Virus record (IMG/VR): IMGVR_UViG_2698536392_000023
Coordinates: 1 to 10,802 of that record
Reading direction: 5' to 3' (one strand)
Source of the DNA: a virus
Lineage: Duplodnaviria > Heunggongvirae > Uroviricota > Caudoviricetes
DNA: 10,802 bases
The notes under the pieces were generated by a model. The model did no database searches, was not told where the DNA came from, and worked only from the letters and a program-made list of their open reading frames with translations. Numbering within the stretch: the first letter of the stretch is position 1; each line of letters begins with the position of its first letter. Positions 1-10,802 of the stretch are shown here, piece after piece. The position numbers were made by a program, and so were the translations under genes.

Positions 1-258
1 CAGAACCACAACAAAGTAATACTCCGGGGCTCTGGTGGCGCTGATTACTGTGCCTTCTCCACCTGTCGGCTTCACCACAACAGGTGTGCTCACATCACCT
101 TCTGCGACAATCGCCTGAATAAGTGCTGCGCCATCATCCGTATACGAAGAAAACGGCCCACCGTATGGTTGCCATCCTTCACGAATTTTTTGCGCAAGTG
201 CATCAGCAAGGTCTGACGGCGATGCCGCCCTGACCACATCGTAGTGTTTAAATGCCAT
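1..258 (-). CDS. 5' part of a CDS whose N-terminus is in the window (86 codons, continues past position 1); DUF1737-like N-terminus as recalled for prophage NanS-p/YjhS-type esterases
   Basis: ATG at 258-256 (minus) preceded by GGAGGA 5 nt upstream; reverse-complement translation MAFKHYDVVRAASPSDLADALAQKIREGWQPYGGPFSSYTDDGAALIQAIVAEGDVSTPVVVKPTGGEGTVISATRAPEYYFVVVL with no stop before the window edge. Absent from the ORF track, which holds only ORFs with a stop in the window; the track ORF 90..356 is a different frame. Family assignment is from memory. Confidence 0.6.
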   Translation of the reverse strand, partial: MAFKHYDVVRAASPSDLADALAQKIREGWQPYGGPFSSYTDDGAALIQAIVAEGDVSTPVVVKPTGGEGTVISATRAPEYYFVVVL

Positions 259-451
259 GAATCCTCCCGGCCGGGATAATATTGTGAGTAAAATGAGGAG
301 CGGGCTGAAATCCGGAAGTTACAGGACAATGGCAGAAGAGAGACAACAGCCCGCAATACGAAAAAGGCCGCGCTATTGCGCAGAGTGATTACTGTCGGAT
401 ATTATTCGCCAGCTGAAATATTACTTCACGTTTTGTTGTTTATTCCTTGCC

Positions 452-480
452 GCCCGCGTCTCCCTGCGCGGGCTTTTTTT
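452..480 (+). terminator. Rho-independent terminator-like hairpin (GCCCGCG-N8-CGCGGGC followed by T7), plus-strand orientation
   Basis: 7-bp GC-rich stem 452-458/467-473, 8-nt loop, T-run 474-480. Confidence 0.5.
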
Positions 481-491
481 GTCCATAAGAA

Positions 492-511
492 AGCCCCTCC
501 GGAGAGGGGCT
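492..511. other. 8-bp perfect inverted repeat AGCCCCTC-CGGA-GAGGGGCT; with the 452-480 hairpin forms a back-to-back hairpin pair
   Basis: Arms 492-499 and 504-511 are exact reverse complements; on the minus strand it is followed by TTCTTAT. Confidence 0.45.
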
Positions 512-707
512 GGAGAGTGGCGCTATGTGCCATTGCATGGTGCCGGGTGCCTCCCGGTGAATTCAGTACCAGCACCTGAATCCGCGATTATCCCATATAC
601 CTACTCGCTGATTGCCCCTCCGCACAGGGGGATTCACCATGCCAGTTTCTTTTAACAAACTCCCCGCAAACCAGACAACAGTCAACCGCCTGAATTGTGA
701 GACATTT

Positions 708-733
708 AAAAAAAAGGCCCGCAAAAGCGAGCC
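708..733 (-). terminator. Rho-independent terminator immediately after the tRNA cluster
   Basis: Minus-strand read GGCTCGC-TTTT-GCGGGCC followed by T8 (plus A-run 708-715); 7-bp stem with one G-U pair. Confidence 0.75.
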
Positions 734-747
734 AGGGAAAATAAGTG

Positions 748-824
748 TGGCGCGTTGTACTGGATTCGAACCAGTGACCGATTGCTTAGAAGGCAATTGC
801 TCTGTCCGGCTGAGCTAACAACGC
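748..824 (-). tRNA. tRNA-Arg, anticodon UCU (reads AGA)
   Basis: Reverse complement GCGTTGTTAGCTCAGCCGGACAGAGCAATTGCCTTCTAAGCAATCGGTCACTGGTTCGAATCCAGTACAACGCGCCA folds as a cloverleaf: perfect 7-bp acceptor stem, GCTC/GAGC D-stem, anticodon loop CTTCTAA, T-loop TTCGAAT, encoded CCA. Confidence 0.85.
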
Positions 825-837
825 ATGATGCATATAA

Positions 838-914
838 TGGACCGCCATCGGGGACTTGAACCCCGCGCAGCCAGCTTCGAAGGCTGGCGCTCTTTCCTGA
901 TGAGCTAATGGCGG
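838..914 (-). tRNA. tRNA-Arg, anticodon UCG (reads CGA)
   Basis: Reverse complement CCGCCATTAGCTCATCAGGAAAGAGCGCCAGCCTTCGAAGCTGGCTGCGCGGGGTTCAAGTCCCCGATGGCGGTCCA: 7-bp acceptor stem CCGCCAT/ATGGCGG, anticodon loop CTTCGAA, T-loop TTCAAGT, encoded CCA. The 5' nucleotide is C, which is unusual. Confidence 0.75.
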
Positions 915-921
915 TATGTGA

Positions 922-997
922 TGGTGGACCTTGCTGGATTTGAACCAGCGGCCTGGCGATTATGAGTCGCTCGCTCTCACCACTGAGCTAAAGGGCC
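922..997 (-). tRNA. ileZ: tRNA with anticodon CAU; body resembles the Ile2 (lysidine, ileX/ileZ-type) class rather than Met
   Basis: Reverse complement GGCCCTTTAGCTCAGTGGTGAGAGCGAGCGACTCATAATCGCCAGGCCGCTGGTTCAAATCCAGCAAGGTCCACCA; anticodon loop CTCATAA, T-loop TTCAAAT, encoded CCA. Acceptor position 3-70 is a C/T mismatch. Ile2 versus Met isotype is from recalled similarity and phage context. Confidence 0.75.
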
Positions 998-1032
998 GGG
1001 AGCAGAATAATAACGGTCCGTAATTAATTCCG

Positions 1033-1060
1033 CAATAAAAAACCCGCTCGGCGGCGGGTT
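1033..1060 (-). terminator. tR'-like intrinsic terminator downstream of the late promoter
   Basis: Minus-strand AACCCGC-CGCCGA-GCGGGTT followed by TTTTATT; sits about 45 nt downstream of the candidate -10. Confidence 0.65.
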
Positions 1061-1107
1061 GTAGAAACTCTTCTAATGTCAGGCATAAAAAGCCCATCGT
1101 TATGACG

Positions 1108-1135
1108 AATTTACCACAGATTCCGGAAAAATCAA
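1108..1135 (-). promoter_or_regulatory. pR'-like late promoter (Q-modified), sigma70-type
   Basis: Minus-strand TTGATT (plus 1130-1135), 16-nt spacer, TAAATT (plus 1108-1113), immediately downstream of the Q-like stop codon at 1141. Confidence 0.55.
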
Positions 1136-1140
1136 CCTTG

Positions 1141-1962
1141 TTACCTAGTTACCTTTTTTAACTGCCGCTCAGCCCATGCTTCTTCAATATCAAACCGGGT
1201 CACCAGCGCATCATAGAATTTCTTAACTGTTTTTTCCCATGACGCGCGTGTTATCTGGTTTGTCACCTCGCATATAGCATTAAATGCCTCCGTTGATGGT
1301 AGTCTTTTATAGCCACGACCACCACAACGCTGGCAGTCTCTGATAACAGGCATACCACGTTTTACCGACTCTTCACGGTAAAGGGCGACACCACGCCCAC
1401 GGCAATCCTTACAGGCGGTGTAAACCTCACCCTTTCCGCCACACTCCGGACAGGCAACTTTTACCACCTCCCTGACTTTTTTCCATTCTTCCCAGTAAGA
1501 CGGATACACACCTTTCGTACACTTTGCCCATACCGGCGGCTTACCATCCGGATACTGGACCTTGTTTGTAAAAACTACGCTTTCAATAAATTTTTCCCCA
1601 TAGCAACAAGGGCACTGCTTTTTACTCGCTGCGCTGCGGGCATAATCCTCAAAAGCGTACGAAGCCATAATGCGCATCACTAACGGTTTTATTTCTGCCG
1701 GAAGTTTTCTCAACGCCGCCACACGATCGCACCGACTGAGTGCATAATCTGCCAGTAATTCTGTTGCCCGCGCCCTGTCATTCATACTGATGCCCATTTT
1801 CCCCAGGAACGCAGAAAACCCCATCTCAGCCCGATTCTGTGTCATGCTCTGCGCGGCCATCACATCAGTGATACTCAGCGCATCTTTTGACGTTGAGGCC
1901 GATGCATCGGTCAGGCAAGGGGATTTTGGGGAGTAGTATTTCGGTAAATCTTCCAGTTTCAT
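1141..1962 (-). CDS. Q-like late antiterminator (273 aa) with three CxxCxGxG zinc-finger motifs
   Basis: Complete ORF; position directly upstream of the pR'/tR'/tRNA block and downstream of rusA; motifs CPECGGKG, CKDCRGRG, CQRCGGRG; start ATG overlaps the rusA stop (ATGA). Confidence 0.65.
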   Translation of the reverse strand: MKLEDLPKYYSPKSPCLTDASASTSKDALSITDVMAAQSMTQNRAEMGFSAFLGKMGISMNDRARATELLADYALSRCDRVAALRKLPAEIKPLVMRIMASYAFEDYARSAASKKQCPCCYGEKFIESVVFTNKVQYPDGKPPVWAKCTKGVYPSYWEEWKKVREVVKVACPECGGKGEVYTACKDCRGRGVALYREESVKRGMPVIRDCQRCGGRGYKRLPSTEAFNAICEVTNQITRASWEKTVKKFYDALVTRFDIEEAWAERQLKKVTR

Positions 1963-2333
1963 TTTTTGACCTGCCCTTCAAGCATTATGGGGTAAATCTT
2001 CACCCCCAGACGTCCACCAGATACTGGCTGAGCACGAACGATATTGATTTCATCAAACTGCTCATCGTCCATTAGCAACCCCGCATGCGTCAGCGCATCC
2101 AGCGGCGCTTTCAGAATATTGTCCAGGTCACGGCGGCGCTTATCCGGTGGCTCGGCAATAATCTTTATCGCCAGCCTTCCGGACAGGTTTAATTTCAGCC
2201 GCTGCTGGCGAACAATAAGTGCCACATCCCGGCGATAACGCTCACCGGCTTTTGATACAAAATATGTGCTGCCACGACGTCGCCAGTAGGTGTTCACCGT
2301 CGGCGGGTAAGGCAAAACAAACTCTATACGCAT
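1959..2333 (-). CDS. rusA: RusA-family Holliday junction resolvase (124 aa)
   Basis: Typical size; N-terminus LPYPPTVNTYWRR and the DKRRRDLDN acidic motif resemble RusA; SD AAGAGG 6 nt upstream of ATG at 2333. Confidence 0.85.
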   Translation of the reverse strand: MRIEFVLPYPPTVNTYWRRRGSTYFVSKAGERYRRDVALIVRQQRLKLNLSGRLAIKIIAEPPDKRRRDLDNILKAPLDALTHAGLLMDDEQFDEINIVRAQPVSGGRLGVKIYPIMLEGQVKK

Positions 2334-2345
2334 CAGTAACCTCTT

Positions 2346-2873
2346 TTACCCGAGCACGCCGGTTGCAAAGGCGTGATCAAGAAAACGAAAAATTAAATCA
2401 ACCTGGGAACCATGCTTTTCTTCGAACGCCAGTGGATCCGCATGAAGCTCGTTGTGATGCTCCCGACACAGCGGTAGCGTGAAAATATCGTGGGATTTTG
2501 TTCCCATTCCGCCCTGACCATGACCAATCAGATGATGAGGATCGTCCGCTGGCTTACCACAACACGCACACGGCTGTGTCTTTACCCAGCGTGTGTATTT
2601 CTCATTTACCCAGCGGCGACGTTTAGGTCGTTTCATGAAGGATTCCGGAGACTCCGGATCAACGGCAATGCTGACCACCGTCTTTTCCTGTGGTGGGTTC
2701 TGTTGCTGGTGGGTGTGAGGTGGTAGCGCAATATTTTTTGTGCGCTGCTTCAGTATGCTGGTGGCGGTCTGTTCTCCCGGTATGATGTCGCTTTCACGGT
2801 ATACGGAGCGGATTTTTTCCGCCGGTAATCCCAGAGAACAACGCGCTACTGCCTCAGGTAGTGCATCCACCAC
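2346..2873 (-). CDS. HNH-like zinc-finger protein, DUF968/YdfU-like C-terminal region (175 aa as drawn; start uncertain, may be the 3' part of a frameshifted longer gene)
   Basis: Motif CACCGKPADDPHHLIGHGQGGMGTKSHDIFTLPLCREHHNELH. ORF begins with GTG and has no recognisable SD; the same frame stays open upstream to 2954; 28-nt overlap with the upstream ORF. Confidence 0.55.
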   Translation of the reverse strand: MVDALPEAVARCSLGLPAEKIRSVYRESDIIPGEQTATSILKQRTKNIALPPHTHQQQNPPQEKTVVSIAVDPESPESFMKRPKRRRWVNEKYTRWVKTQPCACCGKPADDPHHLIGHGQGGMGTKSHDIFTLPLCREHHNELHADPLAFEEKHGSQVDLIFRFLDHAFATGVLG

Positions 2874-3448
2874 CTGATTGCAGGCCGCCCACAGGATAAT
2901 TCGGCCAGCGATAACTCCCTCTCCTGCGTGCCGCTTATTGCGTGACGGATGACGTCAATCATCCAGGCAACCAGATTCTGCTGAGCAAGTTGATCGAGTG
3001 ATTCTGATGTCTGGTCGCGCAGCTGGTTGTCACAGTGCCAGCACAACACCATCGCGCCGGTACCGTAACGGTGAATGACTGTTTCGCTGTGATGATAATC
3101 GCCGTGTGGCCACTGGCAGGATTTCACGTGACGTAATAACCAGTCAGACAGTGCACCAGCGCCGCCAGCTGCACGAATCACCCGCTCATCGCTGAAAAAT
3201 GGCAGCAGTGATTTATCTTCCGCCAGCGGCTGGCGAACAGTAGGAACCGCTCCAGATGGCAGCGCCCGCATGTTTTTCGGTTCCGGCTCCACCAGTATTC
3301 TGCCGTTATGGAATGCTGACATTGATTCACGGCCTGGCTTAACGATAACCAGACCGAGTTCCGGTACCAGAACAGGTCGAAGTAATACCCGCACATTACC
3401 TCCAGACGCGCTGACGGTAGCAGGCATGTGTCCGTGGCAGATGTGCAC
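2846..3448 (-). CDS. HNH-like motif protein (about 200 aa as drawn; start codon uncertain)
   Basis: Motif CQWPHGDYHHSETVIHRYGTGAMVLCWHCDNQL. ORF-track start is a GTG; first ATG is at 3427; overlaps neighbouring ORFs at both ends. Confidence 0.5.
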   Translation of the reverse strand: MHICHGHMPATVSASGGNVRVLLRPVLVPELGLVIVKPGRESMSAFHNGRILVEPEPKNMRALPSGAVPTVRQPLAEDKSLLPFFSDERVIRAAGGAGALSDWLLRHVKSCQWPHGDYHHSETVIHRYGTGAMVLCWHCDNQLRDQTSESLDQLAQQNLVAWMIDVIRHAISGTQERELSLAELSCGRPAIRWWMHYLRQ

Positions 3449-3668
3449 GAACAGGAAGATATACAGAAACGGTCCAGGTCAGACGATCAGCGTTCAGACT
3501 CCGCTCCACACGGACACCGCGACGCAGATACGCCTCTTGAGGCATATCTGCCTCATCGATCGTACAGAACAGATAGTGAAACCAGCCATACTGAGGCGCA
3601 CGAAAACGCCTCCCCTGCTTAATTTCCAGGTCGGCTTCAGAATTGTGGGATTTTATGTGTTGTGTCAT
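3396..3668 (-). CDS. Hypothetical protein, 90 aa
   Basis: ATG at 3668 with GGAGAA SD 6 nt upstream; the C-terminal 18 codons overlap the next ORF in another frame. Confidence 0.5.
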   Translation of the reverse strand: MTQHIKSHNSEADLEIKQGRRFRAPQYGWFHYLFCTIDEADMPQEAYLRRGVRVERSLNADRLTWTVSVYLPVRAHLPRTHACYRQRVWR

Positions 3669-4253: not shown

Positions 4254-4409
4254 TTACTCCTCAGGTTCGTAAGCTGTGAAGACAGCGACCTCCGTCTGGC
4301 CGGTTCGGATTCGTACCTCGCAGAGGTCTTTCCTCGTTACCAGTGCCGTCACTATGACGGTAATACAGATGACGATCAGGGCGATTAACATCGCCTTTTG
4401 CTGCTTCAT
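4254..4409 (-). CDS. hokD: Hok/Gef-family type I toxin (51 aa), closest in my memory to HokD/RelF
   Basis: MKQQKAMLIALIVICITVIVTALVTRKDLCEVRIRTGQTEVAVFTAYEPEE; SD AAGGAG upstream of ATG at 4409. The ORF-track entry 4254..4466 is the same frame extended to an upstream ATG. Confidence 0.85.
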   Translation of the reverse strand: MKQQKAMLIALIVICITVIVTALVTRKDLCEVRIRTGQTEVAVFTAYEPEE

Positions 4410-4794: not shown

Positions 4795-4878
4795 TTACCC
4801 CCACCGACAAATAACATATACTAAAAAATCAATAGCTATAGCAACGCCTGTAATTGCAAAGGCTTCAGGCCAGATCAT
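4795..4878 (-). CDS. Small hydrophobic protein, 27 aa (MIWPEAFAITGVAIAIDFLVYVICRWG)
   Basis: ATG at 4878 overlaps the stop of the DUF551 ORF (ATGA); SD GGAGG 8-12 nt upstream. Confidence 0.45.
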   Translation of the reverse strand: MIWPEAFAITGVAIAIDFLVYVICRWG

Positions 4879-5460
4879 TGGCGCACCTCCTGCGGCGGTT
4901 CTGGTAGCGGCATCCAGTCGGTTACATTGCGGCTCTGTGTTTCGAAAAATTCATCACCATTACGGACTACATCAAAAAACTCACCGTCTCGATATTGCGC
5001 ATAAAGAACGAATGCGCCATCACATAAAATAATTACGTGCTGACCATCATCCGGCATTCGCTCACTACAGCTTATCCAATCATCCAGAGTTACCGGATAG
5101 TTGGTTGACGTTTCCGAGATTTCCCGAAAATTATTGGTTGACGAACCCTTTTTTTTCCCGAAAGTTTCCAGCCTGAAGCATGGCGGCGCTGTCTGGCGGG
5201 GCAGCATATAGCGGCACGTATATTTCCGGTTCCTTATCAGCACCGGGTTGCTCTTCCAGTGAGAATGTCTTTCCGGTAAATCGATTCATATAAAGCACGG
5301 GCTCTGCTTCCAGCGAAGCCTGAGCAACAAGGGCCAGTGCTAAATCCAACTCAATTGCCTCGAGAGAATTTTTGAATGCTGTCTGTTTTACTGCAAATTT
5401 CATCGCCTTTACATTTTCACTAACATGACTGATTAACTGCTCTTTTGTAAAAGTGGTCAT
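4875..5460 (-). pseudogene. DUF551-domain phage protein split into two frames at an A8 (plus-strand T8) tract
   Basis: Frame A 5460..5131 (ATG at 5460, SD AAGGAG) ends ...REKKGFVNQ; frame B 5243..4875 reads ...FGKKKGSS... and carries the DUF551-like C-terminus (DDWISCSERMPDDG...WMPLPEPP). The frames switch at the T8 run 5149-5156. Confidence 0.6.
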
Positions 5461-5516
5461 CTCATTCTCCTTTGATGCGAATGCCAGCGACAATTGAAGC
5501 CTGATAGCTAATTCAC

Positions 5517-5912
5517 TCACAATACCGCCTCCTGAAAATTGCCCTGATAGAACGCCAGTACACGCAGCATAACTTCACTCTTCCGGCACTCGCCACAGAT
5601 TATGTTCTGTTGTCTGTCGTAGCGGCGTATTTCTCCGTCTGGTAACTTTCGAATCAATGTCTGGTCGGTTGTTTTCTCCGCTGCCTTACGCCATACGCGA
5701 TACACCTGTTCTGATGTAAAAACACCGTATTTACCGGGCATGTATAAATCGCCGCAAGCCAGTACATCCACAAGGCAACGTCTGACTGAATGCCAGCCTG
5801 CTCCCGTCGCTCTCTCCAGTTGTGATATCGTCATGCGTTCATTTTTGCGTACCAGCCCGATAATTCGGGCCTTCAGTTCTTCACGCTGTTCGTGTGTAAA
5901 AGGTTTCGCCAT
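5517..5912 (-). CDS. Hypothetical phage protein, 131 aa, possible winged-helix fold
   Basis: ATG at 5912 with GGAGG SD 7 nt upstream; segment TISQLERATGAGWHSVRRCL looks HTH-like. Confidence 0.6.
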   Translation of the reverse strand: MAKPFTHEQREELKARIIGLVRKNERMTISQLERATGAGWHSVRRCLVDVLACGDLYMPGKYGVFTSEQVYRVWRKAAEKTTDQTLIRKLPDGEIRRYDRQQNIICGECRKSEVMLRVLAFYQGNFQEAVL

Positions 5913-8569: not shown

Positions 8570-8995
8570 TCAATGCACTGCCACAGCATTTCCTGCCGGG
8601 CCACCACGGTTCATCTGATTGAAACCGGCGATTGCCACCGCGACAAAATCATCAGCGTCTCTCACCAGTCGCTCCCGCGTCTCCACCAGCTCCCGAAAAT
8701 AAGCTGAACTGTGGCTGCGCATTCTGGCCACCAGCAAAGGTGGCATTGCCTTTTCGATCGCTGGTAACAACGCCTGAATTTTTTCAACTGCATCAGGGGT
8801 GTCTTTCTCTACCCAGCGGAAAATTTTCTGGGTATTGCGAGCCAGGGCTTCCGGATGGCTGTCGTCATACAGTTCCGGGAACGTCATACCCAACTCAAAA
8901 TAAGCCTGGGTTATTCCAGCTGCTGGAACTTTCTCACCATCAGGATATGCCCAGGCATTCATCGCCATGCGGATGTGCTCATGTTTGATTTTCAT
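8570..8995 (-). CDS. ydaT: YdaT-like protein (cII position; family reported as toxic in Rac prophage), 141 aa
   Basis: Size and position downstream of the Cro-like gene match Rac ydaT; N-terminus MKIKHEHI; SD AGAGG upstream; 17-nt overlap with the ydaS-like gene. Family call is from memory. Confidence 0.55.
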   Translation of the reverse strand: MKIKHEHIRMAMNAWAYPDGEKVPAAGITQAYFELGMTFPELYDDSHPEALARNTQKIFRWVEKDTPDAVEKIQALLPAIEKAMPPLLVARMRSHSSAYFRELVETRERLVRDADDFVAVAIAGFNQMNRGGPAGNAVAVH

Positions 8996-9302
8996 GAATC
9001 ATTTGCCTCTTGATGCTTCGGGTATGATCGTTTTCGTCATTTGGTTGCTTCATCGACATATTCTGCGAATAACATGACGAGCGTCGTAAGTATGTCCAAT
9101 CAACATCAGGACGAAGTTCTTCACACAGGACACCACCTTTTGTTGCTCGTTCAATCGCAGGACATCTCTCAGCAGGCAACTGACGTACACCTTTGATCCA
9201 TTGATTTACGCTTGGAGGAGATACACCTAAAAGCCTAGCCATTGCTGATTGCCCACCGACAACAGCACAAGCTCGTTTGAATGAATAGTTATCTTTTTTC
9301 AT
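8979..9302 (-). CDS. ydaS: YdaS-like Cro-type HTH protein, about 107 aa
   Basis: HTH segment QSAMARLLGVSPPSVNQWIKG; ATG at 9302 with GGAG SD (the ORF track begins at an upstream GTG, 9323); divergent from the repressor across an operator region. Confidence 0.65.
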   Translation of the reverse strand: MKKDNYSFKRACAVVGGQSAMARLLGVSPPSVNQWIKGVRQLPAERCPAIERATKGGVLCEELRPDVDWTYLRRSSCYSQNMSMKQPNDENDHTRSIKRQMIHENQT

Positions 9303-9329
9303 CGAATGAACTCCAAAAAACACACAATA

Positions 9330-9359
9330 ATATTAGGCTTAGCCTAATGTGATTATCAA
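9330..9359 (-). promoter_or_regulatory. PR-like promoter for the ydaS-ydaT-replication operon
   Basis: Minus-strand TTGATA (plus 9354-9359), 18-nt spacer, TAATAT (plus 9330-9335); spacer contains operator O1. Confidence 0.45.
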
Positions 9360-9398
9360 TAGGCTATGCCTAACGCTTCGAGAGTAGGGATTGCCTAA
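9333..9398. promoter_or_regulatory. OR-like operator cluster: three TTAGGC-N3-GCCTAA palindromes spaced 25-26 bp centre to centre
   Basis: O1 TTAGGCTTAGCCTAA 9333-9347 (perfect); O2 ATAGGCTATGCCTAA 9359-9373; O3 TAGGGATTGCCTAA 9385-9398 (one half-site imperfect). Confidence 0.7.
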
Positions 9399-9426
9399 CG
9401 CGATGCGCATAGGAGACTATTAAGCA

Positions 9427-9903
9427 ATGCTTAGTGGTAAAGACTTAGGCCGAGCGATAGAGCAGGCCATTAACAAAAAAATTGCATCAGGAGCCGTCAA
9501 ATCAAAGGCGGAAATCGCACGTCATTTCAAAGTCCAACCACCATCAATCCATGACTGGATTAAGAAAGGTTCGATAAGTAAAGACAAACTTCCAGAACTA
9601 TGGCGTTTCTTTTCTGATGTGGTTGGTCCAGAGCATTGGGGGCTTAACGAATACCCCATACCAACCCCATCCACTTCAGATACAAAAAGTGAACTTTTAG
9701 ACATAAACAGCCTTTATCAAGCCGCCTCTGATGAAAAAAGAGCAATTGTGGCTTTCCTCTTATCTGGAAATGCTACGGAGCCTAGTTGGGTTGATCATGA
9801 CGTTCGCGCCTACATTGCCGCAATGGAAATGAAGGTAGCTAACTATCTGAAAAATCAAGAATCAAAACGGAAAAGCCAGAACATCACCAAGACAGGAACT
9901 TAA
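9427..9903 (+). CDS. racR: RacR-like prophage repressor (cI-position HTH protein), 158 aa
   Basis: Divergent from the Cro-like gene across operators; HTH segment SKAEIARHFKVQPPSIHDWIKKG; AGGAG SD; size matches RacR. Family call is from memory. Confidence 0.65.
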   Translation: MLSGKDLGRAIEQAINKKIASGAVKSKAEIARHFKVQPPSIHDWIKKGSISKDKLPELWRFFSDVVGPEHWGLNEYPIPTPSTSDTKSELLDINSLYQAASDEKRAIVAFLLSGNATEPSWVDHDVRAYIAAMEMKVANYLKNQESKRKSQNITKTGT

Positions 9904-10040: not shown

Positions 10041-10244
10041 TTTCCCATACCAACCCATCCCGTCCCACACAATACAGGGCAATACCTAGAGTTACCCGGC
10101 AGTGGTCAGGGATTAAGTAGCCAGCCCGAGGCGTATGAACATGACGGCGGGAACACTTTGTATAACAGCGCAGCAGGTTTTTAGTTCCGCTACCCCAGCG
10201 TTAAGGGGAAATGAGGTCAGCATGGATACTATCGAGCTCCGATC

Positions 10245-10802
10245 CCTAAAGTAACCAGAGCCAGGCTCACCATGGAAGACTGGAAAAAAATTTACAATGC
10301 AACGCCTGAAAAACACTTTATCCGTAACGCAATGCTTCTTGCGATTGTTACTGGTCAGCGCCGTGATGACATTTGCCATATGCGTTTTTCAGATGTGTGG
10401 AACGAACACCTGCATATTACCCAGGGAAAAACTGGAATGCGTCTGGCGTTACCGCTGACGCTACGCTGTGATGCCATTGGGATATCGCTAAAAGAAGTGA
10501 TTGATGGATGCAGGGACAGAATATTGAGTCCATACCTGATTCATAGTCGGCACCAAAAACAACCAAAACCAATGAGTAAAGACAACCTGAGCGATTACTT
10601 TGCCAAAGCGCGGGAGCTGGCTGGAATAATTCCACCAGCAGGAAAAACTCCGCCAACATTTCATGAACAACGTTCTCTATCAGAACGGCTGTACCGTGCA
10701 CAGGGTATCGATACAAAAACATTACTGGGACATAAAGTCCAGGCAACCACCGATCGTTATAACGATACTCGTGGTCAGGAATGGGTTAAATTGGTTGTTT
10801 GA
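10245..10802 (+). pseudogene. Lambda-type tyrosine integrase, C-terminal catalytic domain only (N-terminal about 175 aa missing)
   Basis: Colinear with the lambda Int C-terminus (TGQRR, HEQRSLSERLY, LLGHK, DRYNDTRGQEW, stop at 10802); in-frame stop at 10212-10214 and no Int-like sequence upstream in any frame. Confidence 0.8.

Follow-up and report, generated by a model that had tools for sequence, protein, structure and literature searches.

An apparently inherited A7 to A8 insertion interrupts a DUF551-family gene in the Rac-like prophage of Escherichia coli CC119

Background

A DUF551-type gene that is divided between two reading frames at a run of adenines raises the question whether it carries a plain mutation, a reversible switch, a recoding signal or an error of assembly. 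Such a gene was analysed in a stretch of 10,802 nt of viral DNA, referred to as the window. The minus-strand open reading frames 5131..5520 and 4875..5243 (the latter of 122 aa with the DUF551 domain) overlap at 5131-5243, and both traverse one homopolymer of eight bases, which is T8 on the plus strand at 5149-5156 and A8 on the coding strand and is the sole 8-base run in the gene. The initial annotation had let both halves cross an A8 tract together with a T8 tract; the crossing holds, but the two tracts are one run read on opposite strands. It had further regarded the locus as a single interrupted gene, with a frame offset consistent with a one-base deletion from A9, and had considered transcriptional slippage or phase variation as possible.

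The window is 100% identical to positions 1756477-1767278 (reverse complement) of NZ_CP013029.1, the genome of E. coli 2012C-4227. This strain is an O165:H25 Shiga-toxin-producing isolate, the genome of which was assembled with HGAP3 from PacBio RS II reads only (PMC4683243). The RefSeq/PGAP annotation of the record lists 4875-5460 as 'DUF551 domain-containing protein, frameshifted', so the frameshifted state of this gene is already known.

Methodology

The alleles of the tract were counted in two censuses. For the genome census, 5,426 complete E. coli genomes were searched using probes of 85-88 nt differing in tract length only, with exact flanks of 39/40 nt. For the protein census, the exact allele products were looked up in a set of about 15 billion predicted proteins. 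Related loci were collected from IMG/VR, of which 80 were kept, and 68 of these retain the linker that holds the tract. The effect of tract lengths from 5 to 11 on the reading frame was simulated.

Results

The intact orthologue of the gene is WP_000206793.1 (EDL933_RS12280) in a prophage of E. coli O157:H7 EDL933, which is a single open reading frame of 585 nt coding for 194 aa. The alignment of the window with EDL933 revealed one differing column in 616 aligned nt, A8 in the window versus A7 in EDL933. The gene length in the window is 586 nt, and 586 mod 3 is 1. In the simulation the frame was open with A7 or A10 only, and A9 led to a stop at codon 124. As the orthologue has A7 and only A7 and A10 are open, the lesion is a 1-nt insertion, A7→A8. 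An ancestral length of A9 was ruled out by the frame arithmetic and the homologues, and the deletion from A9 proposed earlier has to be replaced by an insertion, A9 being out of frame and the intact orthologue having A7. The other parts of that proposal are in accordance with the present data: the locus is a single DUF551-type gene interrupted by a 1-nt homopolymer indel, its downstream half is +1 relative to the upstream half by frame translation, and the homologues are single 194-aa ORFs, neither two separate genes nor, where intact, A8.

From the ATG at 5460 the A8 tract is read as GAA AAA AAA GGG TTC GTC AAC CAA TAA. The resulting 109-aa product agrees with the intact protein in residues 1-104 and ends in five residues read out of frame, GFVNQ. 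The translation of 4875..5148 matches the EDL933 protein without a difference over residues 105-194. The junction in the full-length protein is ...REKKGSSTNNFR.... The DUF551 domain in the window lies in the +1 frame, 3' of the premature TAA (5131-5133), and the gene does not form an uninterrupted ORF; the sole in-frame ATG 3' of this stop sits within the DUF551 domain. The features of the locus are summarized in Table 1.

Table 1. Features of the DUF551-family locus in the window
Feature	Position	Strand	Basis
DUF551-family gene, pseudogene by +1-nt frameshift	4875..5460	-	586 nt; RefSeq/PGAP and EDL933 comparison
A8 homopolymer (T8 on plus strand), A7→A8 insertion site	5149..5156	-	sequence; sole gapped column versus EDL933
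Upstream frame, 109-aa product, ATG at 5460 to premature TAA 5131-5133	5131..5460	-	
Downstream gene part, +1 frame, GSSTNNFREI...PPQEVRQ*	4875..5148	-	frame-1 translation
DUF551 (PF04448) coding segment	4890..5078	-	derived from Pfam match, residues 56-118 of 122-aa ORF
Shine-Dalgarno-like AAGGAG, 6 nt 5' of ATG 5460 (putative function)	5467..5472	-	sequence reading
Linker from N-terminal module to DUF551, with imperfect 33-nt tandem duplication, in frame	5100..5166	-	direct comparison of units

The domain content of both gene parts was analysed. PF04448 matched the downstream ORF with 74.9 bits (E = 9e-21; gathering cut-off 22), confirming the DUF551 assignment made earlier, and residues 128-190 of the intact orthologue with 73.8 bits. 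The N-terminal module, which spans about residues 1-100, gave no Pfam match, including Ead/Ea22; its only matches, phrog_660, phrog_60 and phrog_5117, are PHROG families without a known function. As a portable domain, DUF551 is joined to various N-terminal modules, as in Ea22 variant V2 of Stx phages, EaA-like proteins and YfdS of CPS-53 (PMC10834534). Megablast against the phage collection returned partial matches to Stx-converting and P22-like phages (Ea22, EaA, DUF551) covering at most 33% of the query, and no full-length copy in the isolated phage records. The 109-aa fragment keeps a good Shine-Dalgarno sequence and the whole N-terminal module, and judged by these it may be a working protein rather than debris.

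The linker of the intact allele consists of two units, NFREKKGSSTN and NFREISETSTN, which are identical at 24 of 33 nt, the A-tract being in the first unit. Tandem Repeats Finder returned nothing on the DUF551 gene, thereby missing this 33-nt duplication. A phmmer search against PDB sequences gave polyubiquitin matches at residues 50-111 of the intact protein (window about 5128-5311, minus strand), with E = 2e-5 for tetra-ubiquitin. No single stretch of the polyubiquitin matches was significant and BLASTP against mono-ubiquitin found nothing; given the BLASTP null, a relationship to ubiquitin was rejected as an artefact of weak matches summed over repeats. The sequence search found no solved structure of a DUF551 relative.

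The surroundings of the gene, as annotated in RefSeq, contain the genes of a Rac-like lambdoid prophage, which are racR, an HTH gene, a YdaT-family gene, a replisome organiser and an ATPase. The next genes of the same prophage are DUF1627, DUF977, the DUF551 pseudogene, hokD, a YgiW-like gene, DUF968, rusA, an antiterminator and three tRNA genes. The pseudogene lies to the right of the replication genes, in the early-right part of this defective Rac-like element, which also has ydaS/ydaT-like genes. The racR/HTH/YdaT-family module at 8570-9903 is the repressor and toxin region of the Rac prophage, and hokD (4254-4409, minus strand) is a type I toxin gene. The three tRNA genes (Arg, Arg, Ile; 748-997, minus strand) lie 3' of the antiterminator gene, as they also do in the related EDL933 prophage region.

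Other lesions are present in the same prophage. The tyrosine integrase gene at 10233-10802 (plus strand) is annotated in RefSeq as truncated, its N-terminus missing, and the DUF6645 gene at 1-258 (minus strand) as having an internal stop. The DUF968 gene (2346-3394, minus strand) is also frameshifted: near 2885-2901, GG is reduced to a single G. This 1-nt deletion changes CCTGGTGGG to CCTGTGGG in comparison with the intact 1050-nt orthologues of EDL933 and 2014C-3011, and no long homopolymer is present there. The Rac-like prophage is defective and decaying, and with the truncated integrase, the DUF968 frameshift and the DUF6645 stop alongside it, the DUF551 lesion is part of ordinary prophage decay.

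The genome census gave exact-match records for A6 in one, A7 in 294 and A8 in four of the 5,426 complete genomes, and none for A9; A7 is therefore the allele of 294 of the 299 genomes with exact flanks. The A8 genomes are 2012C-4227, 2013C-4830, 2013C-3492 and 90-3040. These four are also the only complete E. coli genomes in which the 10.8-kb prophage segment is present with at least 99.8% identity. They belong to O165:H25 or O172:H25, which form the clonal complex CC119 (PMC10132054; PMC7946995). No complete genome was found in which flanks of the CC119 type are combined with A7. Among the 5,426 genomes, the A8 allele is thus confined to one clonal lineage, and it is stable in the CC119 genomes recovered.

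The protein census agreed with these counts. The exact A7 product (194 aa) was present on at least 1000 contigs, the A8 product (109 aa) on 14 and the A6 product (122 aa) on 12, while the A5, A9, A10 and A11 products were found nowhere among the roughly 15 billion predicted proteins. The A6 allele, a 1-nt deletion, is located at 2527341-2527425 of NZ_CP038414.1, O157:H7 strain 17B6-2, and all 12 contigs with its product are from O157:H7 strains. This allele, seen in a few O157:H7 assemblies, may be a real mutation or a sequencing error.

The tract in the related viral loci was compared at the slot of seven nucleotides. Among the 68 loci with the linker, AAAATAA was found in 38, AAAAGAA in 19 and AAAAAAA in eight, and the remaining three have other interrupted forms, so that 60 of the 68 carry an interrupted run. 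None of the 68 has eight bases in the slot, and one row (L077) shows six bases beside a changed anchor. A paralogue in 2014C-3011 has AAAATAA. Like the pure run, AAAAGAA encodes EKK, and its change to A7 would be synonymous. As for the window itself, it contains seven runs of at least 7 A/T where 3.5 would be expected, and seven are also reached in 24 of 200 shuffles. A run of this length is therefore unremarkable in the window, and its significance rests on the comparison of homologues, not on the run.

Discussion

The results are best explained by an inherited frameshift pseudogene, in which one A was added, in the CC119 lineage, to an A7 run that lies in the linker region of a prophage gene for a 194-aa protein (probability about 0.9). 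The path would start from an interrupted AAAAGAA or AAAATAA, pass apparently by one substitution to pure A7, which is one of several variants and forms a tract prone to slippage, and end with the gain of a base, once in the CC119 prophage lineage. The uninterrupted A7 run most likely gained its A through strand slippage in DNA replication. The insertion would have arisen in the prophage of the common ancestor of CC119 (O165:H25 and O172:H25), or before the prophage was acquired. Ribosomes starting from the ATG at 5460 would stop after 109 residues, the DUF551 domain would not be made and its function would presumably be lost. The A8 allele would then have been passed on vertically and unchanged.

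Homopolymer indels are a familiar residual error in PacBio-only assemblies, and the extra A might be a miscall of this kind in a gene that is really intact with A7. The 2012C-4227 assembly comes from RS II reads and HGAP3 alone (PMC4683243), and two frameshifted genes occur inside 10.8 kb. Yet A8 is common to all four RefSeq genomes with this prophage, and A8 was present in every locus fetched for the 109-aa product. This product is also called in closed genomes, namely four BDQ-series proteins and CP027675 (strain 88-3510); the strain of one BDQ-series protein has a JNE name like those of the CC119 study, from which it probably derives. It was found as well in Logan assemblies made from other public sequencing runs, SRR11180055, DRR401579 (8 samples), SRR13450308 (14 samples), SRR3574299 and DRR401586. 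The occurrence of the same product in other closed genomes and in Logan assemblies makes an error of this one assembly unlikely. Moreover, 2017C-4109, 2011C-4251 and 2013C-4974, which are also CDC-designated genomes, have A7 in their copy, and the second frameshift, in DUF968, is away from any long homopolymer. With A8 and the exact truncated product recurring in the assemblies of other groups, the PacBio artefact was rejected as hardly credible. A real indel within a homopolymer of seven to eight bases, with both the +1 (A8) and the -1 (A6) variant among public sequences, would also be expected of a phase-variable locus, in which frequent replication slippage switches DUF551 on (A7/A10) and off (A8/A9). 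The tract length, however, is essentially fixed per lineage, with A8 throughout the CC119 genomes recovered, A7 in nearly all other genomes of the census, and A9 and A10 never found. In most homologues a T or G interrupts the run, contrary to what selection for a mutable tract would produce. Genes that vary in phase are typically surface and restriction genes, whereas the DUF551 gene belongs to a prophage and has no known function. Phase variation was rejected on the tract census and the interrupted runs, which leave it a minimal chance, and this part of the initial annotation is not upheld.

Transcriptional slippage or ribosomal frameshifting, programmed or adventitious, might still let the A8 allele yield full-length protein, the locus then being a 'pseudo-pseudogene'. 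Runs of A support slippage of RNA polymerase, and some IS elements seem to use eight As, while selection against such runs is evident from about 9 nt in many bacteria (PMC1088944). Rescue by transcription, also suggested in the initial annotation, requires an mRNA that is one A shorter or two As longer, but the transcriptome-wide data for E. coli show mainly single-base insertion at A/T runs, homopolymer deletions being rare (PMC5574713), and a transcript with one more nucleotide (A9) stops at codon 124. The suggestion of transcriptional slippage is accordingly not sustained. On the ribosome, the wild-type ...EKKGSST... would be restored if tRNA-Lys slipped by +1 within AAA-AAA-GGG, moving from AAA to AAG; there is no sign that such a slip is stimulated. 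Frameshift suppression that is not programmed is documented to reach the per-cent level in E. coli (PMC10861913). The common -1 slip on A_AAA_AAA, on the other hand, enters a frame with a stop after 21 codons (KKRVRQ...TIR*) and misses DUF551; rescue by -1 frameshifting was ruled out, as DUF551 is in the +1 frame. The predicted fold 3' of the tract (overall z = -2.8) has a 4-bp hairpin directly after the tract and a single 8-bp stem, which starts at a distance of about 18 nt, with no hairpin at the usual spacing of 5-9 nt. The two-ORF layout is not conserved either, the homologues being single ORFs with the run mostly interrupted. Rescue of the full-length protein by any of these routes is thus very unlikely, and programmed recoding of the A8 allele is not supported. 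Full-length protein may be made from A8 at a low level, by the +1 slip of tRNA-Lys before the less common GGG or from rare A7/A10 transcripts. The intact A7 allele has a strong E. coli -1 slippery heptamer in the zero frame, A_AAA_AAG (EDL933, locus L002, 5397-5420; window 5140-5164). A simulated -1 shift at this heptamer, with the stop five codons later, gave a product identical to the 109 aa made from A8, and A_AAA_AAG gives more than 1% frameshifting in E. coli genes (PMC10861913). From such sequence relations it could be proposed that wild-type prophages naturally make a full-length protein and a 109-aa isoform, and that A8 in CC119 would be the hard-wired short isoform, with traces of full-length protein by the +1 slip. 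The heptamer is present in only eight of the 68 related viral loci, and since it is missing from most homologues, -1 frameshifting on the A7 allele is taken as adventitious; a natural pair of isoforms is highly improbable.

The reading as an inherited frameshift pseudogene corrects the direction of the mutation, which is an insertion into A7. It also indicates that the frameshift seen in an assembly from PacBio reads alone is real and inherited and marks the Rac-like prophage of the CC119 lineage. As the function of DUF551 is unknown, no phenotype can be predicted from the loss of the domain. The finding is otherwise of little consequence, the gene being an ordinary pseudogene, neither a switch nor a recoding signal.

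The locus was compared with known systems. The EDL933 gene for WP_000206793.1 has the same neighbours (DUF1627, DUF977, DUF551, a small hypothetical gene and hokD) and the same order of module, linker and DUF551, but it has A7 with uninterrupted 194 aa and lies in another prophage background, prophages of the O157 type matching the window only in part. The Ea22 V2 proteins, the P22 EaA-like proteins and YfdS of CPS-53 likewise have a C-terminal DUF551 on variable N-terminal modules; in contrast to Ea22/EaA proteins, the N-terminal module here is without an Ead/Ea22 match and the locus is not in the exo-xis region.

In dnaX of Thermus thermophilus (A9) and in IS elements (A8/A9), as here, a run of A on the sense strand is found where two frames overlap (PMC1088944). 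In those transcriptional-slippage genes both the run and the two-frame layout are conserved (PMC1088944), whereas the homologues of the present gene consist of single ORFs, mostly with an interrupted run, and the RNA polymerase of E. coli does not favour the change of frame that is needed (-1 or +2 nt). The -1 site of the dnaX type, A_AAA_AAG, is shared by the intact A7 allele and not by the window; neither a Shine-Dalgarno-like element upstream nor a well-spaced stimulator downstream was found at the locus. The closest likeness is to the homopolymer frameshift pseudogenes of cryptic E. coli prophages, with which it shares an indel of one base, clonal inheritance and other inactivating lesions alongside. 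There is no difference of substance from these pseudogenes, and the present gene is a typical example of them.
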